The notes beneath the pieces were generated by a model, which was not told the DNA's origin, searched no databases, and saw only the letters and a list, made by a program, of their open reading frames with translations. Positions 10,485 to 46,004 of a stretch of 64,000 bases of DNA are shown piece by piece. Within the stretch, counting starts at the first letter, position 1, and each line of letters begins with the position of its first letter. This stretch comes from Candidatus Kaiserbacteria bacterium (GTDB taxonomy: Bacteria > Patescibacteriota > Minisyncoccia > Phycocordibacterales > Phycocordibacteraceae), in contig CAWEXP010000008.1 of NCBI GenBank assembly GCA_963813065.1, positions 73,289-137,288 of the forward strand, given 5' to 3'. The translations under genes and the position numbers were made by a program.

Positions 10485-10495
10485 GTATGTGTAGT

Positions 10496-10959: not shown

Positions 10960-11055
10960 GAAAAGATGAATTAAAAGTTATACCCACCATACTAACAGGT
11001 TCTCCACCTTGCGCCAGGGTTTGCAGACTTCGTGGGACGCGTATAATCAACCGAC

Positions 11056-20927: not shown

Positions 20928-21377
20928 ATGGAACAGCGGATTGAAAATCTCGATGAGCTCGGGCTCGCGGCGCAGGCCTTTGTTGCGCAATTGGTGCCGC
21001 GAAGAGAGGGTGCGACGCTCGTCACCCTCTCGGGCGAGCTCGGGGCGGGGAAGACCGCGTTTACCAAGGGGGTTGCGAAAGCGCTCGGTATCGAGGAAGT
21101 GGTCACCAGCCCCACGTTCGTTTTGGAAAAAATATACCAACTCAAGAATCAAAAATTTACGCGTCTCATTCATATAGATGCTTACCGTCTCGAGTCTGCC
21201 GCCGACCTCGCGTCGCTCGGTTTCGACGAAAGTATGAAGGATCCGGGGAACCTCATTTTCCTCGAATGGCCGGAACGAGTTGCTGGGGGCTTGCCGAACG
21301 CCCCGGTCGAGCTCACCTTTTCCGTCCTCCCCGACCATTCTCGCCATCTGCGGATTACAGGTACAATAGGAGGGTGA
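20928..21377 (+). CDS. tsaE: tRNA t6A biosynthesis protein TsaE (YjeE)
   Basis: P-loop LSGELGAGKTAFTKG. Probable ATG at 20928 (the track ORF starts at an upstream TTG). Confidence 0.7.
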   Translation: MEQRIENLDELGLAAQAFVAQLVPRREGATLVTLSGELGAGKTAFTKGVAKALGIEEVVTSPTFVLEKIYQLKNQKFTRLIHIDAYRLESAADLASLGFDESMKDPGNLIFLEWPERVAGGLPNAPVELTFSVLPDHSRHLRITGTIGG

Positions 21378-23689
21378 CCAAGAAACGCCTCGTCCTCTTA
21401 GACGCCCACGCGATTATCCATCGCGCGTATCACGCCTTGCCAGACTTCACCGGCCCCACAGGCGAGCCGACGGGCGCGCTCTACGGCGTCGTCGCGATGT
21501 TGCTGAAGATTATCACCGAACTCAAGCCGGATTATATTGCCGCATGCTACGACTTGCCCGGCCCCACCGTGCGCCACGAGGCCTATGCCGAGTACAAGGG
21601 CACGCGTGCGAAAACGGATGATGCACTGGTCGCTCAGCTCAATAGTTCGCGCAAAGTCTTCGAGGCGTTTTCGATTCCGGCGTATGATCGTGCAGGATTC
21701 GAGGCTGACGACTTGCTCGGCACCATCGCGCATGAGATGGAATCAAAGAAAGATATTCAAGTCATCATCGCGTCGGGCGATATGGACACGCTCCAGCTCG
21801 TTGATGACAAGCGCGTGATGGTCTATACGCTGAAGAAGGGAATTAATGACACTATTTTATACGACGAAGCAAATGTGAAAGAACGGTTTGGATTCAAGCC
21901 CGCGCTCATTCCGGATTACAAAGGCCTTCGCGGTGATCCGTCCGACAACATCAAAGGCGTCCCCGGTATTGGCGACAAGACGGCGACCGAGCTCATTGTT
22001 AATTTTGGCACCATCGAACAGCTGTATAAAAAATTGAAGAAGAGCGAGACGGTGTTGGTAGAAAAAGGCGTCAAGAAACGCGTCATCGAACTCTTGAAAG
22101 CACACGAAGAAGACGCGCTCTTCTCGAAGAGTCTTGCGACGATTCGCACCGACGCGCCGATTGCCTTCGGATTACCGAAAGACTCATGGCGCGAGGGTGT
22201 TGATGAGAAAAAAATTCTCGCAATGTGCGACGAGTTCGGATTCCGGTCGCTCAAAACGCGTATTAAAATGACGCTCGGCGGGCAGAAGCAATTTGATGAA
22301 GCTTTGGATCCGCATAGGACGAACGGGGTTGGCGAGGGCGTTCCGCCAAAGCCTTCACAAATTCCTCCTACCCGCCTCGCGCAAGCACAAGTGATGCTTT
22401 GGCTCATCTCTTCTGAATTCACTGACGCAACACTCGACGACCTGCTTGCGTTTACCAAGAAAGAAAATTTCGACGCCGCATATGCCGAGCTCGAGAAACA
22501 GCTCGGCGAGCTGGGGCGCGTGCGCGACGTGTACGAGAACATCGAGAAGCCACTCATCCCGGTTATCCGCGGGATGGAGGAGCGCGGCATTCTCGTCGAC
22601 CCCGCCGTGCTCGCGGATCTCGCGAAGAAATATCGCGCCGAGCTTGAGTCAATCGAGAAGAAAATTTATAAAGCGGCGGGGCACGAGTTCAATATCGCCT
22701 CGCCCAAACAGCTCGCGGTGGTTCTCTTCGACGAGATGCACCTCGTGCCCGAGAAGCAGAAGAAGACGCCGGGTGGCGAACGCTCGACACGCGAGAGCGA
22801 GCTGGAAAAAATAAAAGAACTGCACCCCATCGTCGCGCAGATTCTCGATTATCGCGAATTGAAAAAGTTACTCTCGACCTACATCGATAACTTGCCGCCC
22901 TTACTCGACCTTGGGCACCGCCTCCACGCACGTTTCGTCCAGACGGGTACCACCACCGGCCGCATGAGTAGCCAGGACCCGAATCTGCAGAATATTCCAC
23001 TCCATTCCGAGCGCGGCAAGGCGATTCGTCACGCATTTGTTGCAACCGATGGTTTCGAGCTTGTCTCACTCGACTATTCGCAAATCGAATTGCGTATTGC
23101 CGCCATCCTCTCAGGCGACGAGAAACTCTGCGAGATATTCCGCCACGGGCGCGACGTGCACACCGAGGTCGCATCGATGGTCTTCGGCGTTGAGGCGGAG
23201 AAGGTGGATCAAGAAATGCGCCGCCGGGCCAAGGTGATCAACTTCGGCATTCTCTACGGCATGGGCGCCAATGCTCTGCGCGCTCAACTCGGCAGCTCGA
23301 CCGCCGAGGCACATCAGTTCCTCGAAGATTATTTCCACACCTTTAAAACGCTGGCCGAATATCTCGAGACAACGCGAGGGTTCGCGCGCAAGCACGGCTA
23401 CACCGAGACCCTCTTCGGTCGCCGCCGCCAATTCTCGGAGATGAAGTCGCCTCTGCCGTATGTCCGCGCGCAAGCCGAGCGCATGGCGATCAATGCACCA
23501 ATCCAGGGTACGCAGTCAGATATCATCAAGCTCGCAATGGTGCGCGCCGACGAGATGTTGAAAGAGAAAAAGCGTCTGATGACGCACATCTTTTGCTCCA
23601 AGTGCATGACGAACTGGTCTACGAGATACAAAAAGAGCGCGTCACCAATCTCTCGGCGCGTATCAAGAAAATTATGGAATCGGTGTTGA
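21374..23689 (+). CDS. polA: DNA polymerase I (5'-3' exonuclease + polymerase domains); 3' end frameshifted, continues to 23769 in the -1 frame
   Basis: GTG start at 21374 preceded by AGGAGG. Pol A motifs RRRAKVINFGILYGMG and QGTQSDIIKLAM. After ADEMLKEKK the frame is lost. The -1 frame reads HLLLQVHDELVYE...GPNWGNLKVV-stop (canonical motif C and C-terminus). Break at the A5 run 23567-23571. Confidence 0.85.
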   Translation: MTKKRLVLLDAHAIIHRAYHALPDFTGPTGEPTGALYGVVAMLLKIITELKPDYIAACYDLPGPTVRHEAYAEYKGTRAKTDDALVAQLNSSRKVFEAFSIPAYDRAGFEADDLLGTIAHEMESKKDIQVIIASGDMDTLQLVDDKRVMVYTLKKGINDTILYDEANVKERFGFKPALIPDYKGLRGDPSDNIKGVPGIGDKTATELIVNFGTIEQLYKKLKKSETVLVEKGVKKRVIELLKAHEEDALFSKSLATIRTDAPIAFGLPKDSWREGVDEKKILAMCDEFGFRSLKTRIKMTLGGQKQFDEALDPHRTNGVGEGVPPKPSQIPPTRLAQAQVMLWLISSEFTDATLDDLLAFTKKENFDAAYAELEKQLGELGRVRDVYENIEKPLIPVIRGMEERGILVDPAVLADLAKKYRAELESIEKKIYKAAGHEFNIASPKQLAVVLFDEMHLVPEKQKKTPGGERSTRESELEKIKELHPIVAQILDYRELKKLLSTYIDNLPPLLDLGHRLHARFVQTGTTTGRMSSQDPNLQNIPLHSERGKAIRHAFVATDGFELVSLDYSQIELRIAAILSGDEKLCEIFRHGRDVHTEVASMVFGVEAEKVDQEMRRRAKVINFGILYGMGANALRAQLGSSTAEAHQFLEDYFHTFKTLAEYLETTRGFARKHGYTETLFGRRRQFSEMKSPLPYVRAQAERMAINAPIQGTQSDIIKLAMVRADEMLKEKKRLMTHIFCSKCMTNWSTRYKKSASPISRRVSRKLWNRC

Positions 23690-24386: not shown

Positions 24387-24423
24387 GTTGCACAATATCC
24401 TTTTTCCGAAGGTGGTGTGCAGG
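24387..24423 (+). repeat. Array repeat R1
   Basis: Exact 37-mer, 12 bp after the holA-like stop. Confidence 0.9.
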
Positions 24424-25041
24424 TAACTCTCGCGCTGACGGGCGCGCGAATATCGGAAGTACTGGCGCTAACCGGCGAACGTAGTGCAGAAATGTCATGG
24501 AGATGCTCGGTCAGAAACTACGCTAATCTATACAAATTTAACAATTCACTTAGAACCTCATCACGTTGACTCCGTTGAGAACACCCACCGCCTTGGCAAA
24601 GTTAATTAGCATCTAGTCGTTTCGATCAACTGAGACATTACCGGATGGGCGTCGTAATGGATCGGCCAATGAGGCTGACGCTGAGCCCGGTCTAACTCGT
24701 ATCGGCCCCGTCAACAGGGGCAAGCATTGGTCCTTTCAGCGCGGCCCGCGAGACGGTCACAGTTTGGCGTGAGATGCCGGGAGCGGACCCGCCCCATCGG
24801 TTCAGACGTAACGAGCCTTCGAGTTGCATCGGTGAAGCTATCCACACGCGGGCCTGGGCCCAATGAATACCCAAAAGTCAGAGCGCTTGCTTAGTGCGCC
24901 TAGTCGATTACATAATGGTTACTGTGTGATATTATCCACATGCGCGTCTCTGAACTTTGTGGGGAGATCGGATGAGCGTATATGTTGCCCCCAGATTACT
25001 CAGCCTTCAAGGCAAACATGAACCGAGGCCATAAGTAGAGC

Positions 25042-26265
25042 ATGTCAAACGAAGAGCGCTTAGATCAAATCCTGTCGCGTGGCGTTATCAAACAGATACT
25101 GCCGAGCGAGCAAGAGTTCAAAGAACGTATGCTCAGCGGCGCACCGCTGCGGTTTTACATCGGTGCTGATCCAACTAGTAATGCTCTCCACCTCAGTCAC
25201 GCCAAGAACTATCAAGTCTTGGAAGAATTTCGCCTACTCGGCCATGAGGTAATTGTCTTGTTCGGCGATTTCACCGCGCGTATCGGCGATCCCACAGACA
25301 GGACCGCGGCTCGATCACGTCTCACCGGCGATGAGATACGGAAAAACGTTGAGGATTGGATGAGGCAAATCCGTCCATTAATGGACTTCAGTGCCAAAGA
25401 AAACCCTCCGCGAGTTCTCTTCAATTCTGAATGGCTATCTCCTCTGACTTTCGAAGAGGTTGTGAACTTGGCATCCAACATGACAGTGCAAAGGATGCTT
25501 GAGCGAGATATGTTCGAGCGGCGCATGGAAGAGCAGAGGCCTATCTTCCTACATGAGTTCCTATATCCTCTTATGCAAGGGTACGATAGCGTCGCTATGA
25601 ATGTGGACGTTGAATTATGTGGGACTGATCAGATATTTAACGCTCTCGTTGGCCGCTCCCTTCAAAAGACGTACAACAATAAAGACAAGTTTGTAGTGGC
25701 CGTGAATCTAATGGAAAATCCGGTGACTGGAGCTCTGATGTCAAAGAGCCGAGGTACTGGAGTGTTTCTGGATGCGGAACCGTTCGATATGTACGGATCC
25801 ATAATGGCGCAACCTGACGAAATGATAGAGATAATTCTCCTCAACAATACGCGTTTGCCTAAGGACGAAATCGTCCGAGTGTTGGCCCTCGGCCCACGCG
25901 ACGCAAAAATGAGAACGGCATTTCTCGTCACCACTTTGTTTCATGGTGAGGAAGCTGCTTTCGCGGCCGAACAGAGGTTCGTTGAGGTGATACAGAAGAA
26001 AATGGCCCCCACCAGTATTCCAACCATCGGTGTTAGTAGAGAGACACCAGCTGCGTTCGAGATTGTCAGGGCGTGCCTCGACGCCAACGTATCAAATAGC
26101 GAAATAGGTCGGCTGTTCAAACAGCGCGCAATCAGGATCGATGGTGATGTCGTAGATGACCGCGACAAGGTGATCAGGCTGTCGGCCGAGGGAACGAAGG
26201 TAAATGTCGGGAAACGAAAATGGTTCAACGTCGTCGCAGCGCGTTGCGCTGACGGAGCTAGCTAG
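25042..26265 (+). CDS. tyrS: Tyrosyl-tRNA synthetase (class I, with C-terminal S4 domain) carried in cassette 1
   Basis: HIGH-type motif (ADPTSNALHLSHA), KMSKS-type motif (LMSKSRGTGV), C-terminal S4-like RLFKQRAIRIDGDVV. 407 aa. Confidence 0.8.
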   Translation: MSNEERLDQILSRGVIKQILPSEQEFKERMLSGAPLRFYIGADPTSNALHLSHAKNYQVLEEFRLLGHEVIVLFGDFTARIGDPTDRTAARSRLTGDEIRKNVEDWMRQIRPLMDFSAKENPPRVLFNSEWLSPLTFEEVVNLASNMTVQRMLERDMFERRMEEQRPIFLHEFLYPLMQGYDSVAMNVDVELCGTDQIFNALVGRSLQKTYNNKDKFVVAVNLMENPVTGALMSKSRGTGVFLDAEPFDMYGSIMAQPDEMIEIILLNNTRLPKDEIVRVLALGPRDAKMRTAFLVTTLFHGEEAAFAAEQRFVEVIQKKMAPTSIPTIGVSRETPAAFEIVRACLDANVSNSEIGRLFKQRAIRIDGDVVDDRDKVIRLSAEGTKVNVGKRKWFNVVAARCADGAS

Positions 26266-26533
26266 CGATTTCTTGAACGAAATTCTGCTCAGAACATCGT
26301 GGTTTGCTGGTCTGAACGCTCCATTGCCACTTTGGGATGTCCTATTTATTGGCGGCTCCCTAAAGTACAACATTGCACGTCCTGACTCAGATGTTGATCT
26401 GTTTCTCGTTATGCCAAGGCATATCCAGTTAGAGCGTCAGATCAACCCCGTTTACGAATTTCGATTTCGTCACCACATACAAGTCGTTTGCGTATGCATT
26501 TCTGCTGACGAAAAACAGGTGTCACACGAATAA
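26204..26533 (+). CDS. Minimal nucleotidyltransferase-fold protein (MNT-like)
   Basis: GS-x9-DxD signature (FIGGSLKYNIARPDSDVDLFLV). Overlaps the tyrS 3' end by 62 nt, so the start is uncertain. Confidence 0.45.
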   Translation: MSGNENGSTSSQRVALTELASDFLNEILLRTSWFAGLNAPLPLWDVLFIGGSLKYNIARPDSDVDLFLVMPRHIQLERQINPVYEFRFRHHIQVVCVCISADEKQVSHE

Positions 26534-26747
26534 ATGGTTGTCGTACGATCTTTGCAGATTTTCTCCGACTGTCCACGTTCTTCTATCGCGCCTGACGCAA
26601 CGAAATGGGTTGTCCAGTGACTTTTTTATACAGATGAACCAGCTATGGGGGCAACTCTTGTCTGAAGTTGGACTTACGGCAACGAAAGGCATATCATGGT
26701 CTAATCAAAACCTAGACTTGTTGCTCTTTCAATAGAGGGGCACCGCG

Positions 26748-27635
26748 ATGAACGACCACTTCGTAGCATCGTATTTTGACTTTTCTGCATTGCCGATTGA
26801 CTTTGTTGGCAAGCAGACTTTGTGGGGGGTCTCGCCGGTCTCGCCACTTCACTTGGGCTATGATGCGTTGTTTGGCATGCAGTCGCAGTTGTGCGAATTG
26901 GGTGCAAAACCTCGGACGCTGCTAGCCGACGTCCACGCGATGATGTCTCACGGGTTATCCAAGAACGACGTGGTAGTCCGTGCCAGCTACTACGATCACG
27001 TTTTGAGGGACGTGTTTTCCATAGACACAGAAGTAATTCTCGGTTCAGGGTTTGAATACACGGAAGGCTACACAGCAATTTTGTACAAAACCATGCAACA
27101 CTTTACCGTTGGTCAGTCGAAACAGGCTGCTGGAGCGACAAAGAAGAACACCCGCGACACCATCGACCGTTACGTTTATCCGCTAATGCAGTGTGTGGAC
27201 GCAGCAATTCTCGGTCCAGACATCATTGTGGCCGAGAGAAGTCAGGAAAAAATCTATAGGCTGATGAGATCGATGGCTGATGAGCCGGTTTTTGACTCAA
27301 TTTGTGCGTGGTTGTCGTCAGTACACATTGTCTATGTGGAATCAACGCACGATTTGAACGGCGAAAGGATGCAGAACAGCTCGCGGCACACCCGGATAAG
27401 CTACCACGACGAAGCTGATGTAGTGGAGGCGAAAGTGAGGAAAATGTTTGCGCCACCAGAGGCGAAACAACAAGGTGAGAAAGGGAATCCACTCTTGGTT
27501 GCACAATATCCTTTTTCCGAAGGTGGTGTGCAGGTCTTGGTTGCGGCAACGAATGGACGCGAGCCTCAATGGAGAGATATTGAAGGCCGAAAAATGGCAC
27601 TCATGCCAGAACCGCAATCTGCAGTGAGAATTTGA
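26748..27635 (+). CDS. Class I aminoacyl-tRNA synthetase-like protein (TrpRS/TyrRS family), 3' end replaced by array repeat R2
   Basis: HIGH-like region GVSPVSPLHLGYDALFG and a catalytic-core-like middle. The last ~46 codons are encoded by the repeat plus flank. Likely a truncated paralogue. Confidence 0.5.
   Translation: MNDHFVASYFDFSALPIDFVGKQTLWGVSPVSPLHLGYDALFGMQSQLCELGAKPRTLLADVHAMMSHGLSKNDVVVRASYYDHVLRDVFSIDTEVILGSGFEYTEGYTAILYKTMQHFTVGQSKQAAGATKKNTRDTIDRYVYPLMQCVDAAILGPDIIVAERSQEKIYRLMRSMADEPVFDSICAWLSSVHIVYVESTHDLNGERMQNSSRHTRISYHDEADVVEAKVRKMFAPPEAKQQGEKGNPLLVAQYPFSEGGVQVLVAATNGREPQWRDIEGRKMALMPEPQSAVRI
27498..27534 (+). repeat. Array repeat R2
   Basis: Exact 37-mer. Lies inside the 3' end of the aaRS-like ORF 26748..27635 (encodes VAQYPFSEGGVQ). 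Confidence 0.9.
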
Positions 27636-27683
27636 TGGGGAAAAGCACTTCCGCCCTAAATTTCGAGACTTTATCCGGAGGAG

Positions 27684-28712
27684 ATGATGGAAAATCGTGA
27701 TTTGGCAAGCCAAGAATTATCTGGGCTATTGTTTTCGGAGTTCGACGCGAACAAACCCATAGAGTGGAAGAATGATAGAATGTCGGCGTTTCTATTGCGA
27801 GCAGCATTTAATATTGTTCGCTGTGACGAATACCTAAGTACCATTCCCCTCACTCGGGTTCGTCCGAGCATACATCGCGAACTTTATGGCGCTCTGCGAA
27901 ACTACGCGTTGAAAGGTGACTTGGGGTTTGAAGAACATGACGAATGGAAGTTTTGGTCCATAAGTTGCTTGATCAACGACGCCCAATATCGAATCGCGGC
28001 AACGTTCGATCGATGCATAGCCCACTGGATTATTAAGTTCTTCCGTGACGTGGAGCCGTCGCATCCTCAAAAAGAAAGGGCAGCGCCCATAGAAGATCTG
28101 CTCCACTCCTGGGAGTCGGTAAAATTGATGACGCTCAAAATCTCTTTGTCGAGCATGAAACAAGTGTGCGATGCGATGCCAGACGAGAGTGGTTCGACGC
28201 TTTCTGAGTCACTCCACAAAAGCATGTTATCAATCGAAAGAATCTCTTCTGCTTTGTGGTTATCTGGAACAGATACTGCAGCAGGTGCTATTCGACATGC
28301 TCAAAATGCATACTGCAGACGCATCAGAGAGGTGGCCACATCAGGTGATTGCCTTTCGGCATACAGGCTAATCGACCAATTGTCGGTATGCAGACAGGAT
28401 GCGAAAGGGAAGATTTATGAGCGAGCGAATAACATGAACGATGAGGAATGTCTTGCTATTGTTATTGGGCGGGTAAACGATTTCAAACATCGAGCAATCG
28501 GACCAAATATTGAAGAGGAGCTGAAAGAGGAGGCGAAGCCGTACCTGCGTCACATCGAGCTTGCCATTACAATTCAGGCATTGCGCATAGTGACGCGATT
28601 TTTCAAAGCTATGTCTGCGTGTATAGAAAAAGCCTCCGAACTGGGTTTGGAGGCTTCAAAGAACAATCAAGCGCGCACTGGAGAAGTTGTACCGTTCAGT
28701 AAAGCATTGTAG
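27684..28712 (+). CDS. Hypothetical protein (cassette 2)
   Basis: 342 aa, no recognisable motif, AT-rich codon usage unlike the flanking core genes. Confidence 0.4.
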   Translation: MMENRDLASQELSGLLFSEFDANKPIEWKNDRMSAFLLRAAFNIVRCDEYLSTIPLTRVRPSIHRELYGALRNYALKGDLGFEEHDEWKFWSISCLINDAQYRIAATFDRCIAHWIIKFFRDVEPSHPQKERAAPIEDLLHSWESVKLMTLKISLSSMKQVCDAMPDESGSTLSESLHKSMLSIERISSALWLSGTDTAAGAIRHAQNAYCRRIREVATSGDCLSAYRLIDQLSVCRQDAKGKIYERANNMNDEECLAIVIGRVNDFKHRAIGPNIEEELKEEAKPYLRHIELAITIQALRIVTRFFKAMSACIEKASELGLEASKNNQARTGEVVPFSKAL

Positions 28713-29074
28713 CGCTTAAGACATTGAGGCGCCCAATGTTCCTCAAACGCCTTCGCACTTTCCTTCCCGACTCCTACGTGAAATGTCAAAATGCTGACTG
28801 CCGGTATCGCCAATGCGCGGCCTCTCAGTGCAACCGCCTTCTTAAGCAACAAGAGCTCACCTTTGGACTTTGATGTGGTGTGCTCATTCTCCAATTCGTC
28901 ATCAATTGCATCCAGCGCGCGGTCCACTTCGTCGATTGTCAGAAGTATACCGGCCGATCCTACAAACACATTAAGCAACGATGGATGCGCAAGAGCTTTC
29001 AATATAGGATGGCGAACTTCCCATTCAAACTGATCGCTGTCGCAGCATGATACCCTTGCATCTAGTGTCGTCAT
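28667..29074 (-). CDS. Hypothetical protein (only minus-strand ORF in the array)
   Basis: 135 aa, overlaps the 3' end of 27684..28712. Weak call. Confidence 0.25.
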   Translation of the reverse strand: MTTLDARVSCCDSDQFEWEVRHPILKALAHPSLLNVFVGSAGILLTIDEVDRALDAIDDELENEHTTSKSKGELLLLKKAVALRGRALAIPAVSILTFHVGVGKESAKAFEEHWAPQCLKRYNALLNGTTSPVRA

Positions 29075-29309
29075 TGCACTCTCCTGATTAGGTCAACCGA
29101 GTTCCGACGATCCAGAACCCGGCATTCGCCAACCAAGAAGCCAAGTGCTTGCACCTGAGATGTGGAGTATACGAAGTAATCAATGTAAAGGCAACTTGCC
29201 ATAGTGCTCAGTATACAGACTTAACACTATGAGCAATATTGTTCAGTATTTACTAGCCGGTCAACTACTTTCTTCTTGCTTGCTTTGAGTATGCCGCCAA
29301 CCTTGATTT

Positions 29310-29891
29310 ATGTTGTTTGATCAAGCAGGTACGCGCAAATACCTCACTGCCGATGAACGACGCGCCTTCATTCGCGCGGCAAAGCGGTTCGTTCCTCCGG
29401 TCGAAACATTCTGTCTGACCCTAGCGCTCACGGGAGGGCGAATTTCGGAGATACTCGCGCTCACGCCCGACCGCATCGACCGAGCGAGCCACACGATCAT
29501 CATTGAGAGCCTCAAAAAGCGGCGTAGCGGTGTTTTTAGAGCCGTTCCTGTGCCGGACTACCTCATAGACAAGCTGACCGCCGTTCATGGCGTTTCTAGC
29601 GGTACAGGCGACACGTCGTTACGCAGCGAGCGACTCTGGCGGTGGAGCCGAACAACGGCGTGGCACTACATAAAGACGGTGATGGTCGCTGCTGGAATTC
29701 CCCGAAACGTGTCGAAGCCAAAGGCGCTGCGCCATGGCTTCGGCGTCGCCGGTACGCAGTCAGGCGTACCACTCAATATCATCCAGCGCTGGATGGGCCA
29801 CTCTCGTCTCGAAACCACGGCGATCTATACCAACGCTGTTGGTGATGAAGAGCGCGCCTTGGCCAAGCGGATGTGGAACGGGATGCCGTAA
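29310..29891 (+). CDS. Small tyrosine recombinase / phage-integrase-family catalytic domain
   Basis: Box I Arg (LALTGGRISEILAL). Motif RHGFGVAGTQSGVPLNIIQRWMGHSRLETTAIYT (H-x-x-R ... Y nucleophile). Only 193 aa. Confidence 0.8.
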   Translation: MLFDQAGTRKYLTADERRAFIRAAKRFVPPVETFCLTLALTGGRISEILALTPDRIDRASHTIIIESLKKRRSGVFRAVPVPDYLIDKLTAVHGVSSGTGDTSLRSERLWRWSRTTAWHYIKTVMVAAGIPRNVSKPKALRHGFGVAGTQSGVPLNIIQRWMGHSRLETTAIYTNAVGDEERALAKRMWNGMP

Positions 29892-29911
29892 AGAGTCACA
29901 TAGAGAACCGC

Positions 29912-29948
29912 GTTGCACAATATCCTTTTTCCGAAGGTGGTGTGCAGG
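29912..29948 (+). repeat. Array repeat R3
   Basis: Exact 37-mer, 20 bp after the tyrosine recombinase stop. Confidence 0.9.
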
Positions 29949-30303
29949 GTATCCACTGCGACCATTATTTGCAGTGAGATTCAATTTCCAAAGCTGAAGT
30001 AGTTGTCGGCGACCCAAACATTAATTCAGTATACTGATTAAACAGAATGAAGGCATTCTGTTCAGTGTCAGCAAACTACATCCGTCTCGAAGGCGGGGCT
30101 TTGCTCCCAAAGATAGATAGGAATCTGTAGGCCGGGCACCGCGACGATTAGGGGAAAGTGCGGAAACGCAGCCGTCTTGGGACCAGAAACGACCAAAACA
30201 GCTCAATAACCGCGCCAATCCCTGGGGACAAACATCGTGGATCGATGGCGAAGCCACGGACATTGTTGCAATATTGCTCGCGGCGAATCAGTTGTAAGCT
30301 ATA

Positions 30304-31080
30304 ATGATCCTTGCACCTATGACACCTATGCGGGATGAGTGCATCTACTCGAAGTATGCGCGGTATTTCGATTTGCTTTATCCGCATGACAAGTACGAAC
30401 GGCAAGCCAACATTCTTGACGCTGTGTTTGCTCGATACAGCAACCGGAAAATATCGCACATCCTCGACTTGGCATGTGGCACTGGTTCGCTTGCGAACCT
30501 ATTGGTCAAACGGGGTTATGCAGTAACGGGTCTCGAATTGAGCAAAGAGATGATTGCTATTGCGCAAAGCAAGGTTCCCGAGTTGCATGCCGTGCAGGGC
30601 CGCCTCGAAGAATTTCCAATACGTGGATCATATGATGCCATTACGTGCGTTTCAGCGCTGAACTACCTAGAATCAGCAGGCGCTCTGGAAGAATTGTTTG
30701 CGCACTGTAGCGAGTCACTAGTCGATGGTGGGTTATTGATTATACAGAATGCGCTAGTCCGCGGACGGTCTCACAAGTTTGGGCAGCTTCACGTCAATAC
30801 TTTTTCCAACGGTTCGATTTCTCTTGCTAAGTTCGGCACCTGGGACCTGGATGAGGCAACGAACGAGTGTCAAGCAAAGTTCTGTATCTTGCTCAAACAG
30901 CACGGTCACACCAAATTCGACATAGACCTACACCGTCTTCGTGTGTTCTCAACGGGAGAAATTACGTCTGCTTTACAGAAGAGCGGTTTGCAACCGTACG
31001 TGCTTGATGAAAAGACACTTGCACCATATTTGAAATCTACGGCGCCTGCGCTCTTCGTGGGGCGCAAAATTGTATCGTGA
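30304..31080 (+). CDS. Class I SAM-dependent methyltransferase (cassette 3)
   Basis: Motif I ILDLACGTGSLANLLVKRGYAVTGLELS. Confidence 0.8.
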   Translation: MILAPMTPMRDECIYSKYARYFDLLYPHDKYERQANILDAVFARYSNRKISHILDLACGTGSLANLLVKRGYAVTGLELSKEMIAIAQSKVPELHAVQGRLEEFPIRGSYDAITCVSALNYLESAGALEELFAHCSESLVDGGLLIIQNALVRGRSHKFGQLHVNTFSNGSISLAKFGTWDLDEATNECQAKFCILLKQHGHTKFDIDLHRLRVFSTGEITSALQKSGLQPYVLDEKTLAPYLKSTAPALFVGRKIVS

Positions 31081-31288
31081 TAGTCAATTCGCTTTATTTC
31101 GGAAATTGGTATTTTCCTCAGTATCAGAGCTTGGGCGAGCGCTGCACTTTCGTTATCTGCGCGATGTATGGCATTTAATAGATATTTGCGGCCTCGAAAA
31201 AAAATCGGGGTTCTGACTCCAAACCGATAACGCAATGAAGACAGTGCGCACAGATGTGGTGCGGTGTGGTCTCCACACACAGCACGAA

Positions 31289-31325
31289 GTTGCACAATGT
31301 CCTTTTTCCGAAGGTGGTGTGCAGG
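31289..31325 (+). repeat. Array repeat R4 (variant)
   Basis: 37-mer with a single A>G change (CAATGTCC). Confidence 0.9.
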
Positions 31326-31647
31326 TAGCAGATGTCGAATACTTCATGCAGTTGGCGGCGGCGAATGGTGGTCGATGAACAGTATAAGAGTGTTCCTTCT
31401 CCGGCCTCGGACACATCCGAGGCCAGTTCGTACTTGCTGCAAGTATCGTTCTTGGGTCCCTGCTGTATTCTGTCGGCCGCATTTTCGTATATGCCCACGA
31501 TACGCGGCAGAACGATTCGTGGTCCACAAGTGGCAATGCGTTCGAAGTTCCTATGCTACAATTCCGTCATGGCTCACCAATATATGTCGCAGCAAGCAAT
31601 CACCATCCCGTTCTCAAATCAAATGACACGCGGCAACCCAGATTTTT

Positions 31648-32547
31648 ATGGAGTGGTTGGCTAGTTTCAGCTCAACCGGACTGCACTTCCTCCTGGCACT
31701 GTTCGTGGGGGTTATTTCGTTGGTCCATCCAACCCCGTCGCTGGTTTGGCAGACCGTTACTGTATCTCAAGCGTCGACCACCGCACTATCATCTGCCGTG
31801 CAGACGCAAGCTACCCAGCCGTCTGCTATGCAGACACAATCTGTTCAATGGGTGCCAATCGCAGCGGCTTCAAGCACGAGCTACTCGCAAAGCGGTTCGA
31901 TGATCTATTACGAAGGTCAGCAAATCGTCACGGCAGACCCGACTACATTCCATGTTTCGTATGACCCTTTCAGTCCAAACTCATACGCAAAGGACAAGGA
32001 TCAGGTGTACTTCGGTCACGATGCAGGTGTCGATGTTCCCTCTGTCGCAGCCGGAGCCGATGTAATTGCGGGCGCGGACCCGTCGACATTCACGCCGATC
32101 TATGACGCGGCCGGATACTTTACTTTCTATGCAAAGGACAAGAATCGCGTGTTTTATGGTGGTGGGCGTCTTTTCCACACTGAAGCGCTCCCTGCCACTT
32201 TCGTCGTTCTACCAAGCGGCGAGCCACCCGATCCAAACGTTGCTTTTTCAAAGGATCAAAATCATGTCTACACATGGGCCGGGATAGTTGTCGATGCCGA
32301 TCCGGCGTCATTTGTAGTGATTGGAACTGTTCCCTACGCACCAGAGTTCGGCAATAGTGGCCCTGTCTATGCAAAGGACAAGAGCCATGTTTTTGTATCG
32401 GATGGACGAACGCTCGCGAGAGTTATCCCGGGTGCTGATCTATCGAGTTTTGTAATCAGCCCTTATTCAGCAACATCCACCTATGACGCGGAGGACAGCA
32501 ACCACTTCTATCTCGATGGCAGGGTCGTGGCGAATGGCGCCCTGTAA
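31648..32547 (+). CDS. Secreted DKNYY-repeat protein (cassette 4)
   Basis: Signal/TM N-terminus. Repeated YAKDK(D/N)xVYFG...GADPSTF units (PF13644-like). Paralogous to 44221..45832. Confidence 0.65.
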   Translation: MEWLASFSSTGLHFLLALFVGVISLVHPTPSLVWQTVTVSQASTTALSSAVQTQATQPSAMQTQSVQWVPIAAASSTSYSQSGSMIYYEGQQIVTADPTTFHVSYDPFSPNSYAKDKDQVYFGHDAGVDVPSVAAGADVIAGADPSTFTPIYDAAGYFTFYAKDKNRVFYGGGRLFHTEALPATFVVLPSGEPPDPNVAFSKDQNHVYTWAGIVVDADPASFVVIGTVPYAPEFGNSGPVYAKDKSHVFVSDGRTLARVIPGADLSSFVISPYSATSTYDAEDSNHFYLDGRVVANGAL

Positions 32548-32576
32548 CGAGAAGTCGCGATCAACCCACGTGTCAA

Positions 32577-33176
32577 TTGACCTTTCGTTGTAACCCTAAA
32601 CTACGATTGCACGAAGGTCGCTCGTCATCCCGAAATGCTGACTTCAAAAAAGTCGGTTGCATAAAAGCCTTGAACGTCATTTGGTGCGAGGGAATTGTTA
32701 GGGCGTTGCACAATATCCTTTTTCCGAAGGTGGTGTGCAGGTTCGCTGGATCTCTAAATAGCGCTGGGCAACAGGTCGAGTCATTCATTGGTATTGTTGA
32801 AAATGGTTTTTTCGACTGGCTTAGCACATACGGCCAATCAGTTGGTGGCGGAGCGTTTGGGCAGGCCGCCGGGATTACAAATACGGCAATAGAGACAGCA
32901 AAGGTCGTAGCCGAAATTCTAGATGACGCCATAAAGTCAAAACCGGCGACTCGGCAATATCTCGATTACGAACTCCAATCATTCTGCAACGGCTCGACTT
33001 GTAGCGCGTCCCAGCTGGCCCAAGCTGCCAACGACCTCAATCAATACTCCGACGCAAAGGTTGGATTGAATCTCGTAAAACAAGGATTTGCATTGCCTAG
33101 CATGACCGAAGTCGAGTTCCTTCAGAATGCGCTAACGCAATACGCTCTTGAAAAGGGCTACAAGGTGGTAAACTGA
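32577..33176 (+). CDS. Hypothetical protein (cassette 5); true start probably downstream of repeat R5
   Basis: The track ORF reads through repeat R5 (LHNILFPKVVCR is an artefact). Downstream part is Gly/Ala-rich. Confidence 0.3.
   Translation: MTFRCNPKLRLHEGRSSSRNADFKKVGCIKALNVIWCEGIVRALHNILFPKVVCRFAGSLNSAGQQVESFIGIVENGFFDWLSTYGQSVGGGAFGQAAGITNTAIETAKVVAEILDDAIKSKPATRQYLDYELQSFCNGSTCSASQLAQAANDLNQYSDAKVGLNLVKQGFALPSMTEVEFLQNALTQYALEKGYKVVN
32705..32741 (+). repeat. Array repeat R5
   Basis: Exact 37-mer. Confidence 0.9.
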
Positions 33177-33244
33177 GTGGGCATTCACTGGGGAAGTTCT
33201 CAACCCGTGAGGCGACTTGCGCTACGTAATATCAACATCATTTT

Positions 33245-33895
33245 ATGTTTCTCATTCCGAAAGTCACATTTTATTCGTCCGCGGCATGTCTCGGCCTACT
33301 GGCGATAAGCATTGCGGTTTTTGCAATTCGCAGCGACCAACGACTACATACGCTTCCATCGGATCAGGATAGATTTGTAGCTGATTGCCTAGGGGCCAAT
33401 AGTCTCGTCACCGCATCAGATACGACCTTGTGGGCAACGTATCAAACAGCCGATGTTGTTGGAATTCCAGCGTTAAACTTCAAATATCCTAAGGGTTTCG
33501 GAATTCCGCAGTCCAAGGTGGCGGATGGTACTGAGGAAATTCTGTTTTATGACTCGATGGGAGCAATAGGTTCCCCCCTGCCATTTTGCTCCGCACTTGT
33601 CGTTGTTCCCATCAGGCTAAAACCGGATCAATCACTAGATTCGCTCGTTGCGGAACAAGCTCTCCCTATCGAAAAATTTAAAGTCACCAATCAGTTCGTC
33701 ATTAATGATTATCGCGTGGTAAGCCAAGCAGCAGCCCCTAATGCGTCAACAATTGACTACTACGTCCAGATGAATGGCGACCAAGTTTTGGACTTTGTCT
33801 TTTCGCGTTCAGGTCCCGACGGCAACTTAAATCAAATGTCAGAATACGCTGCGCTCAGCAAGCAAATCATGTACACGGTGCAGTTCACGCCTTAG
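33245..33895 (+). CDS. Membrane-anchored/secreted hypothetical protein (cassette 5)
   Basis: N-terminal TM MFLIPKVTFYSSAACLGLLAISIAVFAI. Confidence 0.45.
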   Translation: MFLIPKVTFYSSAACLGLLAISIAVFAIRSDQRLHTLPSDQDRFVADCLGANSLVTASDTTLWATYQTADVVGIPALNFKYPKGFGIPQSKVADGTEEILFYDSMGAIGSPLPFCSALVVVPIRLKPDQSLDSLVAEQALPIEKFKVTNQFVINDYRVVSQAAAPNASTIDYYVQMNGDQVLDFVFSRSGPDGNLNQMSEYAALSKQIMYTVQFTP

Positions 33896-34073
33896 CGTGC
33901 GGCTTCCCTGCCTAATCAGTCAGTGACTTCTGCTCAAGCATGTGACAAAGCGGCCTCGGTAACACCGAGGCCGCGGAAAAAACAGGGTTACAATCCTTAT
34001 TGACCAGCTTTCGCCGCCGAAAGCTGCATGAGGTATTCGACAGCCTCTTGCGCCTTGCTCGCGGCGGTGAAGA

Positions 34074-34110
34074 GTTGCACAATATCCTTTTTCCGAAGGT
34101 GGTGTGCAGG
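34074..34110 (+). repeat. Array repeat R6
   Basis: Exact 37-mer, 32 bp from the cas2 stop (34143). Confidence 0.9.
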
Positions 34111-34142
34111 GACAGGTGAATACTGGCTGGAATCGCGGATTT

Positions 34143-34439
34143 CTAGACAATTTCAAAAGACTTAGCATTATATTGCTCCTCAATAGTGGCGCTGGCAGTC
34201 GAGTTCGTCGCGCATGATTTGCAGGAGGCGAGTAGGTGCAGACGGTCTCGCTTTCCTGATAGCAATGATAACATTCGCGCCTCGAACTCCCGACGTTCTT
34301 TAAAGGAAAGGCGTCCGACGTAGAGTGTTGGTTGCAGCTTGGACAGAGCATAATTTTTGGAGAACTGCTCTGCCTGAGCCTGCCGCTTTTTGTTAGCGGT
34401 TCGCCACGCGGCGATAGTGAGGAAGCCTGGATCACTCAT
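34143..34439 (-). CDS. cas2: CRISPR-associated endoribonuclease Cas2 (divergent)
   Basis: 98 aa. 4-nt ATGA overlap with the cas1 stop. Beta1-basic stretch-beta pattern (FLTIAAW...KKRQAQ...LQPTLYVGRLS...RDRLHLL) matches the Cas2 fold order. Sequence is divergent, so identity rests mainly on size and coupling to cas1. Confidence 0.55.
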   Translation of the reverse strand: MSDPGFLTIAAWRTANKKRQAQAEQFSKNYALSKLQPTLYVGRLSFKERREFEARMLSLLSGKRDRLHLLASCKSCATNSTASATIEEQYNAKSFEIV

Positions 34440-35488
34440 GGTGCGTACTCGAAGGGTATATACATCGTCTCTTTCTCCATAAATATCCGCGCGAGGAGCT
34501 CGCTCTGCTCGGTAATCGCGGCTTTGAGCGTGCGGCGCTTGCCGCGATGGGGCACCTTGAGCTCAAGGTGCTTGAGTACCGCCTCGACCACTTTGCTTTT
34601 ACCTTGCGCCGAGAGCCGATATTCGTTTTTGCTGACCTGCTCAAAGTCGCCACGCTTGCCGAGCTCTTTGGAGATGAAAAGAGGAATGACGGCGGCATCG
34701 ACGGCTGGCACGCGAAACTCCTCGATGAGGTCCAAGACGAGCGCTGGCTTGCCATATCGTTCGGAGTGGTAGAGACCGAGGTATGGGTCGAGGCCGATAT
34801 AGAGGCAGGCGCGCTCAATCTCATTGTAGAGGATACCGTAGCCATAGTTGAGCGCGCTATTGAACTTGTCACGGCCCTGCGGGATGCGACCGGGGAACTT
34901 GAAGAGTAATCTCATGCTTTGCCAATAGCGTTCGGCGATAGAGCCCTCGAAGCCGAGCAGCTCCTCATTTGCGCGATTGCTCGGGAGCAATTTTGCGATT
35001 GACTCAAACATCGTCTCTGCCTGCATGCGTTCCTTGGCATTTTCCGCTCCGTACCGGTCGGTGAGGTGACGCATAAAGCGGATTTGGTTGCGGCACTTGC
35101 CGATGACAAACGTGCGCGCGAGTTCAAACGATTTGGTCGGGTCGGAGGAAACTGCCAGCTGTGCGCGGCGTAGCGTCGCGAGCCCCTTCGGGTCGCTGGA
35201 GAATATGCGCCCGACCGGCTTGCCGAACGCACCGAGATAAACGATGTCCACCTCATGTGCTAACGCGAGCTGTACCGCATGCATGGAGATAGAGGATGGG
35301 CGCAGTATGACAATTTTACTCAACCTACGAATTGGGTATTCTTTCTTCACGCGCGGCGGCTTCGGGAGCCCTATTGCTCGGCGTTTCCGGCCCCTCGGCA
35401 ATGGCGGTTTGGGCCCGGGGAGGGAGATGGTAATCCGCTCGCCCGTCGCGCCGATAAATGTGCCGTAGGTGTCTATCAGCAAATCCAT
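34436..35488 (-). CDS. cas1: CRISPR-associated endonuclease Cas1
   Basis: Hallmarks ERYWQSMRLLF, NSALNYGYGILYNE and GLDPYLGLYH...ALVLDLIEEFRVPAVD (compare S. pyogenes NAGLDYGYTLL / GLKH...DIMEPFRPLVD). Unusual Lys/Arg/Pro-rich insert near the N-terminus. Confidence 0.9.
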   Translation of the reverse strand: MDLLIDTYGTFIGATGERITISLPGPKPPLPRGRKRRAIGLPKPPRVKKEYPIRRLSKIVILRPSSISMHAVQLALAHEVDIVYLGAFGKPVGRIFSSDPKGLATLRRAQLAVSSDPTKSFELARTFVIGKCRNQIRFMRHLTDRYGAENAKERMQAETMFESIAKLLPSNRANEELLGFEGSIAERYWQSMRLLFKFPGRIPQGRDKFNSALNYGYGILYNEIERACLYIGLDPYLGLYHSERYGKPALVLDLIEEFRVPAVDAAVIPLFISKELGKRGDFEQVSKNEYRLSAQGKSKVVEAVLKHLELKVPHRGKRRTLKAAITEQSELLARIFMEKETMYIPFEYAP

Positions 35489-35630
35489 TGGCGAAAAAAT
35501 ACCACCGCACTTGACCGATAGTCAAGAGACTTGCTTTGTCCTCCGCGGGGGGGGGGTTCGAACCCGCGTATGCTATCATATAAAGGTAGTCGTCAAACTT
35601 GACTACAAGTGGTAGTGTTCGGCGAGACAT

Positions 35631-35702
35631 GCGCCCGTAGCTCAGCGGTAGAGCAAGAAGCTTTTAACTTCGAGGTCGGTGGTTCGATCCCACCCGGGCG
35701 CA
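35631..35702 (+). tRNA. tRNA-Lys (anticodon TTT)
   Basis: Acceptor GCGCCCG/CGGGCGC, D-arm GCTCAGCGGTAGAGC, anticodon loop CTTTTAA, T-arm GGTGGTTCGATCCCACC. No encoded CCA. Confidence 0.85.
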
Positions 35703-35703
35703 C

Positions 35704-36534
35704 ATGACTGTTTCTTTTCGAGAGCGGTGTCGAGCTCTGCGCCAGCAAGGCAAGAGGATCATTGAGATTGTGAAGATAACTGACCGGGCCAAATCTTCTG
35801 TCTATACGCACATACGAGACATGCCCCTTAGTGCGGACCGGATGCGGGCAGTGCGCGTTGCATCGGGGCGGCATATTCGGCTCTATGCGCTCGCGAGAAA
35901 GGGAAAGAGTGCGCGAAAGTTTAGGACATTCAAAAAATGGACGCCCGAGCTGGTGCTCCTCGTTGCCCACTTATTGTTTGACGGCGAAATATATCGCGGC
36001 GGAATCTACAACAACCGAAACACCGCGCTTATTGAACGCGTTGAGCAATACATGCGAATACTGTACGACTATGAACCGAAACGGTATACGAATCCCCTGA
36101 CGGGTGTGCATCGGATTAGTTATCATAATGTAGAATTCGGCGCGTTTCTAAAAGCAAAATCTCGAGAGTTACTTACGAAAGTAAAACGAATGCCGCCCGA
36201 GCTAAAACGAGAATTTTTGCGAGCATTTTTCGACGACGAGGGATGCATGGACTATCGGCCCAATGAAAATCGGAGAATGGTACGCGGGTACCAAAAAGAT
36301 GTCAGAATTCTCAAGCTCGTAAAAACGCTCCTGCAAGATTTCAGAATCTCCGCTCGTATAGTGAGACCGAACGAGGTGGTGATTGTGGGAAAAGAGAATC
36401 TAAAACGATTTCAATGCGAGATCAACTTCTCTCGCGGCATTTTTATGAACGGCGATCGCCCAAATAGTCGCTGGAAAAAACATATGGAAAAACGCGAGCT
36501 GTTGCGGCTCGCCATTGCGTCATTTAAAAATTAG
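35704..36534 (+). CDS. Double-motif LAGLIDADG homing endonuclease with N-terminal HTH
   Basis: Motifs LVAHLLFDGEI and LRAFFDDEGCM. ATG starts 2 nt after the tRNA-Lys discriminator base. Confidence 0.7.
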   Translation: MTVSFRERCRALRQQGKRIIEIVKITDRAKSSVYTHIRDMPLSADRMRAVRVASGRHIRLYALARKGKSARKFRTFKKWTPELVLLVAHLLFDGEIYRGGIYNNRNTALIERVEQYMRILYDYEPKRYTNPLTGVHRISYHNVEFGAFLKAKSRELLTKVKRMPPELKREFLRAFFDDEGCMDYRPNENRRMVRGYQKDVRILKLVKTLLQDFRISARIVRPNEVVIVGKENLKRFQCEINFSRGIFMNGDRPNSRWKKHMEKRELLRLAIASFKN

Positions 36535-44062: not shown

Positions 44063-44220
44063 AAGGGGGTTTGTTACTATCCAACCCCATAATCGGGCTG
44101 GTATGGATATTATATATTGTTTGGCGGTGTCTCGGGGATTCGAATTTTTTAGGCAAGGCCTTGTAAGCGTTCTTTCGTGGGTTTTCGAGCAGCCAGCCGA
44201 GGTCTCGGGGTCGCTTGGGT

Positions 44221-45832: not shown

Positions 45833-45920
45833 AACTCGGTTATCAACTTGCGCAACTTAGGCCTCAAGGTCGCACTAACGCCTCAGGCCTCAGGGTTGGT
45901 CCGATACAAAAGTCTTCGGG

Positions 45921-46003: not shown

Positions 46004-46004
46004 G

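Follow-up and report, generated by a model that had tools for sequence, protein, structure and literature searches.

The 64,000-nucleotide (nt) stretch of a Candidatus Kaiserbacteria genome analysed here, referred to throughout as the window, carries between holA and a tRNA-Lys gene an array of six copies of a 37-nt direct repeat (24387–34110), separated by five gene-sized inserts and followed by an operon that encodes Cas1 and a divergent, predicted Cas2 (Table 1). The repeat, GTTGCACAATATCCTTTTTCCGAAGGTGGTGTGCAGG on the plus strand, is represented by five identical copies and one copy with a single mismatch, and no further copy occurs in the window, where none is expected from shuffled sequence. 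On the strand of the cas genes the repeat reads CCTGCACACCACCTTCGGAAAAAGGATATTGTGCAAC, a partly palindromic 37-mer with inverted ends (TGCACA/TGTGCA) and the ending ...ATTGnnnAAC, which is common among the repeats of CRISPR (short palindromic repeats, clustered and regularly interspaced) arrays.

An initial annotation of this locus, made from the sequence alone, had described an island of co-oriented genes, each followed closely by a repeat, that was arranged in the manner of integron cassettes and ended at position 34073. Much of the underlying anatomy is accurate, including the short distances between gene ends and the repeats that follow them, the presence of one repeat within an open reading frame (ORF), and the placement of roughly nine of ten ORFs on the plus strand. 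The long gap of 320–620 nt reported downstream of each repeat is found in four of the five segments (618, 355, 322 and 503 nt), the gap in the second segment being 149 nt. The island was also correctly described as richer in A and T than its surroundings: its G+C content (GC) is 0.50 (0.485–0.52 in individual segments), versus 0.57 and 0.56 in the 10 kb on either side, and the GC of third codon positions (GC3) in its genes is 0.475–0.60, with the exception of a recombinase ORF at 0.66, versus 0.68–0.76 in ruvB, pilB, polA, holA, cas1, a Mur ligase gene and ruvA. This foreign composition, in segments separated by repeats, bears out the proposal that the cargo was acquired horizontally. The proposed right-hand end of the feature was misplaced, since it leaves out the sixth repeat and treats as mere flank an operon that lies 32 nt from that repeat and belongs to the feature, which runs on through cas2 and cas1. 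Counts of promoter and terminator signals for the individual cassettes, of which the initial annotation had suggested checking the promoters, do not exceed those in shuffled sequence, and a search of RNA families across 23–37 kb of the window matched only the tRNA.

Table 1. Coordinates of the repeats, inserts, operon and right-hand border in the window (aa, amino acids; TyrRS, tyrosyl-tRNA synthetase)
Feature	Coordinates	Strand	Remarks
Repeat 1	24387–24423	-	perfect copy; distal to cas2; 12 nt past holA stop
Spacer 1	24424–27497		3074 nt, GC 0.50; fragment of a tyrS–X–tyrS-like cluster
Repeat 2	27498–27534	-	inside TyrRS-like read-through ORF 26748–27635
Spacer 2	27535–29911		2377 nt, GC 0.50; unknown 342-aa gene (27684–28712, +) and tyrosine-recombinase ORF (29310–29891, +)
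Repeat 3	29912–29948	-	20 nt past recombinase ORF stop
Spacer 3	29949–31288		1340 nt, GC 0.485; S-adenosylmethionine-dependent methyltransferase gene (30304–31080, +)
Repeat 4	31289–31325	-	one mismatch; 208 nt past methyltransferase gene
Spacer 4	31326–32704		1379 nt, GC 0.52; DKNYY-family gene (31648–32547, +), Pfam E 7e-21
Repeat 5	32705–32741	-	157 nt past DKNYY gene
Spacer 5	32742–34073		1332 nt, GC 0.49; unknown 216-aa membrane-anchored gene (33245–33895, +)
Repeat 6	34074–34110	-	cas2-proximal; 178 nt past the gene starting at 33245
Leader-like stretch	34111–34142	-	32 nt between cas2 stop and first repeat; read from sequence
cas2, divergent	34143–34439	-	98 aa; overlaps cas1 stop by 4 nt
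cas1	34436–35488	-	350 aa; Pfam Cas_Cas1 E 9e-64; NCBIfam TIGR00287 222 bits, cut-off 72
Promoter-like site upstream of cas1	35496–35525	-	TTGACT-18-TATTTT with TG; consensus match only, weaker than in relatives
tRNA-Lys	35631–35703	+	right chromosomal border of the inserted module; ARAGORN end 35703, Rfam end 35702

The cas1 gene, which is divergent from tRNA-Lys and lies 142 nt from it, scores below cut-off against all subtype-specific NCBIfam models, and its best profile match in the PDB is an archaeal Cas1 (4n06, E 4e-48). The third-ranked match, 6opm (a 431-aa chain labelled Cas1, 128 bits), is presumably a casposase, although the search output does not label it as such. Four candidate catalytic residues (E181, H241, D253 and E256 in window numbering) are invariant in 42 relatives, and the GC3 of the gene (0.71) is host-like. 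Comparison with the sister locus L064 indicates purifying selection on the protein, because amino-acid identity (84%) exceeds nucleotide identity (73.5%). A sigma-70-like element (TTGACA, a 17–18-nt spacer and a -10-like TAT.AT) is conserved before cas1 in five relatives; this conservation, together with the invariant catalytic residues and the greater conservation of protein than of DNA, suggests that the enzyme is active.

The small ORF that follows cas1 displays no match in Pfam or NCBIfam. In a PDB profile search built on 19 relatives, Cas2 proteins account for five of the top six matches (E 0.08–0.7), three of them named Cas2 and two that we take to be Cas2. An AlphaFold model built from a 4-sequence alignment (pLDDT 73) displays the order beta-alpha-beta-beta-alpha-beta, and when that model was submitted to Foldseek, 27 of the top 30 PDB matches were named Cas2 or Cas1–Cas2 complexes, the top 15 of them with E values of 9e-5 to 7e-4. 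Profile search, predicted fold and Foldseek comparison together identify the ORF as a predicted Cas2. It belongs to a small family whose members, out of 1.84 billion representative proteins, fall into 62 clusters at 50% identity, and residues W12, Y30, G42, E48, C73, C76 and E96 are invariant in the 19 relatives. As a side observation, the alignment of this protein with its relatives displays a signature of the clade that comprises an invariant C-x-x-C, W12 and a C-terminal FE[ILMV][VIL] tail. In canonical Cas2 proteins an aspartate is expected at the end of strand 1, aligned with the position after W12; by reading of the alignment, that position is occupied here by E, R, Q, S or F.

Leader-like stretches similar to the one between cas2 and the first repeat, about 32 nt in length, occur in L002 and L064, where they end in ...GCT|CCTGCA, and in L070, where the ending is ...ACT|CCTGCA; elsewhere among the relatives, the end of cas2 and the repeat are 2–38 nt apart, where this was measured.

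Related loci and strain differences

Relatives of the window's Cas1 number in the hundreds, and the named sources among them are Patescibacteria, Parcubacteria, Paceibacterota and Nomurabacteria. A scan limited to one genome per species yielded 36 loci whose Cas1 is 39–89% identical to that of the window. A related 37-mer is located on the cas strand just after cas2 at 25 of these 36 loci by a strict pattern, and at approximately nine more, with variant repeats, by inspection. Nineteen arrays contain two or more copies of their repeat, all on one strand and with 0–1 mismatch per copy, and together delimit 50 spacers of 140–4242 nt (median approximately 1.48 kb), none of which falls within the canonical range of 20–72 nt. 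Array L025, for example, has spacers of 1038, 1429, 2058, 1472 and 2873 nt, and those of OY969557.1 (L012/L063, a record labelled as an 876-kb chromosome) measure 213, 2526, 144, 579, 4007, 386 and 140 nt. Loci with more distant Cas1 proteins (25–33% identical; Chloroflexota, cyanobacteria, spirochaetes and others) carry ordinary arrays with a period of 70–96 nt.

The layout also extends to archaea: a metagenome-assembled genome (MAG) of Aenigmatarchaeota, a DPANN lineage, encodes a cas1 of the same clade (39% identical) and the same Cas2 variant (L034, 9947-12928), with a repeat 29 nt past cas2 and a second copy after a spacer of 1545 nt. A second archaeal contig (L036) has a similar look. 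The same layout is a trait of this Cas1 clade, and not an accident of the window's genome.

Comparison of repeats between lineages demonstrates that they differ mainly at positions 9–14, with the ends and a TCGCAAAAAGGA core conserved. Uniform within each array but specific to it, the repeats show the pattern expected of local duplication at each insertion, and the opposite of that expected of cassettes imported together with a site of their own; they are accordingly regarded as made locally. No degenerate copies that might mark the ends of arrays were found at up to 11 mismatches. The pairing of the inverted ends is conserved across lineages, and since it is not accompanied by compensatory substitutions, the ends are better explained by a symmetric complex that recognises DNA than by an RNA hairpin.

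In a search for strain variants of the window's own array, the exact repeat was absent from the metagenome contig collection, a family-level pattern matched only four metagenome contigs (L071-L074), and the sole other copy of the window's cas1 that was found lies on a 2.9-kb Logan contig that is broken in the repeat. An apparent case of gene decay between L077 and L078 was rejected: the DNA of the two is almost identical, and the difference lay in the gene calls.

A view of change at such a locus was provided by six contigs from different samples (L064–L069; ERZ27254752, ERZ28563803, ERZ4903055, ERZ4903072, ERZ27254767 and ERZ4903137) that encode one and the same Cas1 protein, 84% identical to that of the window. 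Three of them (L064/65/69) possess a single repeat followed by native flank; the other three (L066/67/68) match the first group at 99.96–100% identity as far as the repeat's final base, beyond which they run for at least 1.1 kb through unrelated DNA of 61% GC. The breakpoint between near-identical strains is located exactly at the border of the repeat. The variable content in strain variants that the initial annotation had suggested looking for is thus seen in this sister lineage.

Borders, content and origin of the inserts

The segment farthest from the cas genes provides one example of how an insert ends. Its first gene, tyrS (25042–26265), is intact (TIGR00234, 298 bits) and retains HIGH-like and KMSKS-like motifs; the middle gene, designated X (26204–26735), is broken, and a third, TyrRS-like gene (26748–27497) is cut at the border of repeat 2. 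The segment is collinear with an intact three-gene cluster on a 92-kb contig of 64% GC (L075, 8001-11147), and in part with a contig of 50% GC (L076). Homology of the third gene, as detected by tblastx, ends at 27497, the base before repeat 2, and its counterpart on L075 runs 243 nt further. The second TyrRS-like gene of the cluster is of archaeal type, and the neighbours of the cluster on L075 (PilZ, Crp, MFS and TetR) look non-patescibacterial; the two paired TyrRS genes could themselves constitute a mobile cluster.

At the other end of the array, the cas-proximal border of spacer 5 consists of the last approximately 25 codons and the terminator hairpin of a minus-strand gene, and spacer 4 starts with a 3' fragment homologous to that gene end (a 78-nt match, 76% identical). 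Each of these two homologous gene ends abuts a repeat; their orientations are opposite, and the cut in spacer 4 lies 24 nt further in. In spacers 3–5 a single complete plus-strand gene is found per segment, its end 157–208 nt from the following repeat, so that the description of complete, co-oriented cassettes is true locally, but borders cut genes in spacers 1, 4 and 5. The protein encoded by the unknown 342-aa gene of spacer 2 displays no match among plasmids.

These individual cases agree with an analysis of 74 borders in 12 of 13 arrays, namely those with spacers of 600 nt or more. At a border, the longest stop-free frame that abuts it has a median length of 343 nt, compared with 440 nt at random cuts in host flanks (p = 0.06) and, for shuffled sequence, 125 nt (p = 8e-23); the borders of the inserts cut genes as random breaks would. 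Across the 13 arrays, 43 ORFs lie on the cas1 strand and 27 on the opposite strand. Co-orientation, which in the window holds for five of five segments (two-sided p about 0.06), does not characterise the system. The inserts share no end motif or signal resembling a protospacer-adjacent motif (at most 0.2 bit per position), and carry no terminal inverted repeats (an inverted end match of 3.24 of 12 positions, versus 3.14 by chance).

The content of the inserts is equally varied. It includes outer-membrane beta-barrels, which are unexpected in single-membrane Patescibacteria, as well as ArdC-like peptidases, methyltransferases, DnaX, an IS200 transposase, PemK, and metabolic functions such as isochorismatase, dehydrogenases (SDR), polyprenyl synthase and tyrS. 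One insert of L063 is a co-oriented block of five genes led by a GntR gene, and a 386-nt spacer of the same array is spanned by an NDK-family ORF, such that an NDK-sized fragment abuts the repeats. At L031 (9972-11126, on the same contig as L029), a repeat is followed by a cas1 that starts at residue 112, its first 111 codons gone, and then by cas2 and a repeat; this fragment matches intact copies from its own MAG at 99.9–100% identity, and self-capture or rearrangement is a possible origin for it. The GC of the inserts is below that of the host flank in most of the 14 arrays compared. The inserts are compositionally foreign and functionally miscellaneous DNA with arbitrary ends. Since a type IV pilus ATPase is encoded nearby and DNA uptake has been ascribed to these organisms, it may be speculated that imported DNA is their source.

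Proposed mechanism and its alternatives

The explanation that is favoured here, with moderate confidence, is that the locus derives from a CRISPR adaptation module and stores long DNA in place of short spacers. A promoter-driven cas1–cas2 operon would be provided, within 32 nt, with a 37-nt repeat of CRISPR type as its point of insertion. The 3'-OH ends of a linear fragment would, via Cas1–Cas2, attack the leader-proximal repeat at its two borders, one on each strand, and gap repair at the staggered joints would then duplicate the repeat. With neither a length ruler nor a trimming nuclease (cas4 is absent), fragments from 0.14 kb to more than 4 kb would be inserted whole, and repeated rounds would leave identical repeats between unrelated foreign pieces, corresponding to whole genes, parts of operons and truncated genes. 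Attack by 3'-OH ends, and duplication of a repeat or target, are the known chemistry of both CRISPR adaptation and casposon integration. We infer catalysis by Cas1–Cas2, duplication of the repeat with every insertion, and polarity of insertion; the captured genes may be of use to the host or may simply be tolerated by it. The effect would be that of a gene-capture platform, similar to an integron in outcome and to CRISPR or casposons in mechanism. RNA-guided immunity is not thought to be the function, because no effector genes accompany the module. A broader proposition, that the ultra-small, symbiotic Patescibacteria and DPANN archaea share a Cas1–Cas2 clade without a spacer-length ruler that acts as a homology-independent, site-specific inserter of kilobase DNA, thereby builds gene arrays, and would represent both a hitherto unrecognised way of acquiring genes horizontally and a living intermediate between casposon integration and CRISPR adaptation, is advanced more tentatively and might well prove wrong.

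The resemblance to CRISPR adaptation modules is extensive: both possess a Cas1 with conserved acidic and histidine residues and a ferredoxin-like Cas2 in one operon, and directly downstream a repeat that, at 37 nt, lies within the CRISPR range of approximately 23–55 nt and belongs to the ...ATTGnnnAAC class. As in CRISPR arrays, identical direct repeats separate unique, foreign sequences, lineage-specific repeats travel with their Cas1, and the content of close strains diverges exactly at a repeat edge. Unlike CRISPR arrays, the spacers measure 140–4242 nt rather than 21–72 nt, span an approximately 30-fold range of lengths and contain whole genes (those of the window are about 40 times too long); no effector, Cas6 or Cas4 genes were seen near the module; there is almost no separate leader; and close relatives carry the entire cas1–cas2–repeat unit at different sites of the chromosome. 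The locus is not filed as a CRISPR-Cas system of any described type, because its spacers are not short and no effector was seen nearby.

A second point of comparison is provided by casposons, which are reportedly Cas1-dependent, self-synthesising transposons (Krupovic and colleagues, 2014, and later biochemistry). In both cases an integrase of the Cas1 family would insert kilobase DNA and duplicate a defined target segment, and successive insertions at one target would generate tandem inserts between copies of that target. Each insert is flanked on either side by the 37-nt repeat, the topology that a target-site duplication would give. The location of the unit directly after a tRNA gene in some relatives, and an 18-nt flanking duplication in L064 (one of 15 loci tested), are further similarities. 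In contrast to casposons, no family-B DNA polymerase is found among the annotated genes of the window's array or the related loci (polA, at 21266–23689, is a syntenic host gene and not the polymerase of an element), neither inserts nor unit possess terminal inverted repeats, the module includes a Cas2, its Cas1 gives the highest scores with CRISPR Cas1 models and structures, and the inserted DNA is miscellaneous and lacks an integrase gene of its own.

Several observations weigh against the capture of long DNA by an adaptation module. As far as is known, characterised Cas1–Cas2 complexes measure their substrates, and integration of kilobase DNA in vivo has been demonstrated for none of them. 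The copy of the repeat at the greatest distance from cas2 is also perfect, an unusual state for CRISPR arrays; gene conversion or a very recent origin could account for it. The contigs of L066–68 end before any second repeat, such that no insertion event is seen from end to end and, for this reason, we infer the duplication of the repeat rather than observe it. No spacer is common to two distinct arrays, and hence there is no evidence of polarity. Most relatives were screened for ORFs of at least 380 aa, a threshold at which small class 1 subunits could be missed, and the scans covered the loci only, such that effectors or processing enzymes may be encoded elsewhere in the carrier genomes. Finally, L026, L029 and L020 have one repeat with unrelated DNA on both sides, and therefore a second process, mobility of the unit, is needed that lies outside the favoured model.

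That second process is the core of the strongest alternative, which holds that cas1, cas2 and the repeat constitute a selfish transposon, a mobile unit of 1.4–1.5 kb, and that the long inserts, made by the same integration chemistry as in the favoured model, are an unselected by-product of an integrase that takes whatever DNA it meets, without function for the host. The window and L064 are syntenic over approximately 40 kb, and yet the unit is located at different sites in the two. In the window it lies between holA and tRNA-Lys, which in L064 are 90 nt apart with nothing between them; in L064 it lies between ruvB and pilB, which in the window are 322 nt apart and the site empty. In L064 the whole unit lies between two exact copies of an 18-nt sequence, AGGGAGTATGAGCGGGAT (9969-9986 and 11419-11436), in direct orientation; they look like a target-site duplication created by insertion of the unit, and one diverged copy of the same sequence is found in the window at 18530–18546, in the unoccupied ruvB–pilB site. 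At five other loci (L015, L018, L020, L026 and L029, each at 9899-11402) units of 1504 nt that are 97–99.9% identical are embedded in unrelated flanks and have the same ends, 103 nt before the cas1 ATG on the left and the last base of the repeat on the right; three of the five, together with the truncated fourth copy at L031, reside in one MAG (MFD05512.bin.1.167). In three relatives, tRNA genes for Gly, Ser and Arg end 64–73 nt before the cas1 ATG (L010, 9857-9928; L011, 8307-8394; L012, ~9849-9923), and a promoter-like element fills the gap. Decay of some captured genes, such as the broken gene X and a recombinase that lacks its N-terminal domain, would also fit a unit that confers no benefit. 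Against this explanation, a flanking duplication was found at only one of 15 loci tested (L064), no terminal inverted repeats were seen at the ends of the unit, and no mechanism of excision is evident. (The left end of the unit looks somewhat like a degenerate repeat, but this likeness was dropped as too weak to be told from chance.) Furthermore, the clade is old and widespread and its cas1 is host-like in composition, which fits long-term residence as well, and many captured genes are intact, including tyrS with its motifs and the five-gene block of L063. A purely selfish unit is regarded as unlikely, if still the most serious competitor of the capture model.

A further alternative, considered distinctly improbable, is an unconventional form of immune memory, in which long inserts would be transcribed from the cas side and would act on invaders or become guides, with effectors encoded elsewhere or replaced by host RNases. 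The class of the repeat and its inverted ends are compatible with such a role, read-through transcription from cas1–cas2 is plausible, the content of each array is unique to its lineage, as in CRISPR, and some inserts contain genes of mobile elements (the ArdC-like peptidase, IS200 transposase and PemK, and an integrase fragment). However, no effector or Cas6-type gene was seen near any scanned locus: none was found among 49 ORFs scanned in the window or in the Pfam-annotated 10-kb flanks of four module-bearing relatives (L063, L064, L070/L077), and Cas effector models (PADLOC) matched none of the 63 largest ORFs around 17 further loci, in which PADLOC detected one DinG-like helicase and one PolA-like match that are probably housekeeping genes. 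Much of the inserted content is itself housekeeping or metabolic (tyrS, DnaX, NDK, polyprenyl synthase and SDR). A blastn comparison of both halves of the array with 50,697 phage records gave no match (phage sampling for these organisms being poor), no phage structural families were found in the inserts (matches to PHROG were generic only), and no relatives of the Cas1 were found on viral contigs. The lack of compensatory changes in the repeat ends likewise gives no support to an RNA structure.

The cassette array proposed in the initial annotation, in which a site-specific recombinase would exchange units of an ORF plus a repeat that serves as attC, is very improbable. Integrons and the present locus do share an integrase gene beside a fixed point of insertion and a strain-variable array of acquired segments between repeats; spacers 3–5 have the expected arrangement of gene and repeat, and a tyrosine recombinase ORF lies within the island. 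That ORF, of 193 aa, is nevertheless a C-terminal fragment comprising only the catalytic domain (Phage_integrase, E 7e-20) and confined to one segment; it matches positions 94–258 of the 263 in the XerA model (72 bits, cut-off 220), and scores 36 and 30 bits against integron-integrase models with cut-offs of 265 and 435. No tyrosine recombinase is present among the called genes of L063, L064 and L070/L077. The repeats are identical within an array, generated locally and specific to a lineage, as opposed to the cassette-specific hairpins of attC sites; they measure 37 rather than 57–141 nt, and their GTTGCAC does not fit GTTRRRY. Where integrons employ the tyrosine recombinase IntI and accumulate promoterless ORF-plus-attC units, the loci described here possess Cas1–Cas2 as the constant partner of their repeats and contain random, often gene-cutting fragments in mixed orientation. 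The initial annotation is thus supported in part: its anatomy was right and an ordinary CRISPR array was rightly rejected, but the repeats are of CRISPR type and lie beside cas2–cas1, and the analogy that it drew for them was wrong.

That unrelated contigs were joined artificially at a shared CRISPR repeat can be given almost no credence: short-read assemblers do break or mis-join at repeats, and Logan contig L001, from another assembly, ends inside repeat 6, but the architecture recurs in approximately 19 independent assemblies from different projects (including the 876-kb chromosome-labelled record and contigs of 0.3–1 Mb), two independent assemblies yield one and the same array of four repeats, differing at 5 positions over 20 kb, and there are no short spacers that could have been skipped.

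Kilobase spacers beside cas1–cas2 were not described in the literature searched in full text, a body that excludes most papers in subscription journals, and the long-spacer array is apparently an undescribed variant of the CRISPR adaptation machinery. In the 2025 update of CRISPR classification (PMC12669027), no mention was found of Patescibacteria (the Candidate Phyla Radiation, or CPR), of solo modules or of long spacers. Stand-alone adaptation modules have been described as remnants that persist after loss of effectors, and the same source reports solo-Cas4 genes from both CPR and DPANN genomes, along with signs that the two groups have exchanged them (Hudaiberdiev et al. 2017, PMC5704561). 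The modules in that study resemble the present ones in possessing cas1–cas2 without an effector module, and its solo-Cas4 genes occur in the same two groups of small genomes; they differ in that a conserved and distinctive type of array is found here, without cas4, and kilobase spacers are not mentioned there. Partial cas operons in CPR genomes, and lineages almost devoid of CRISPR immunity, have been noted in another study (Burstein et al. 2016, PMC4742961).

If the favoured model of long-DNA capture is correct, it would correspond to a new reaction of Cas1–Cas2, in which kilobase DNA is inserted into a defined 37-bp site, and would be of biotechnological interest as a means of placing gene-sized payloads site-specifically without homology or RNA guides. 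It would provide genome-reduced, host-dependent bacteria and archaea with a concrete route of horizontal gene acquisition, and would explain the persistence of cas1–cas2 in lineages almost devoid of CRISPR immunity. It would also bear on how CRISPR adaptation arose from casposon-like integrases, since a CRISPR-type target is found here together with inserts the size of casposons. Programs for CRISPR detection that require short, regular spacers presumably miss such arrays, and the loci are likely annotated as orphan cas1 genes.

Other features of the window

Directly after tRNA-Lys lies an ORF with a LAGLIDADG domain (35704-36534; GC3 0.52, below that of neighbouring core genes), which is also present in L001. 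It is not part of the module, because it also follows tRNA-Lys in L064 (17871-18701), where that site is free of the module.

A second island of low GC (0.45–0.49) is located at 43493-46487 and is bounded by tRNA-Ser. It encodes an Ltp-like lipoprotein and a DKNYY protein with four repeats (44221–45402), which is only approximately 30% identical to the DKNYY protein of spacer 4. Elsewhere in the window are found genes similar to those of type IV secretion systems (a TraG/VirB4-type ATPase and a pilin, at 3663-8575) and proteins with cohesin and dockerin domains (60119-63890).

The window further contains a gene for a large serine recombinase (51355-52698), the DNA of which has a match of 777 nt, 68% identical, within the ORF at 59211–60032 that may represent a second copy. 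In L002, the closest relative, with a Cas1 89% identical to that of the window, a homologue of this recombinase gene (8541-9940, 78% nucleotide identity) is located directly upstream of cas1.

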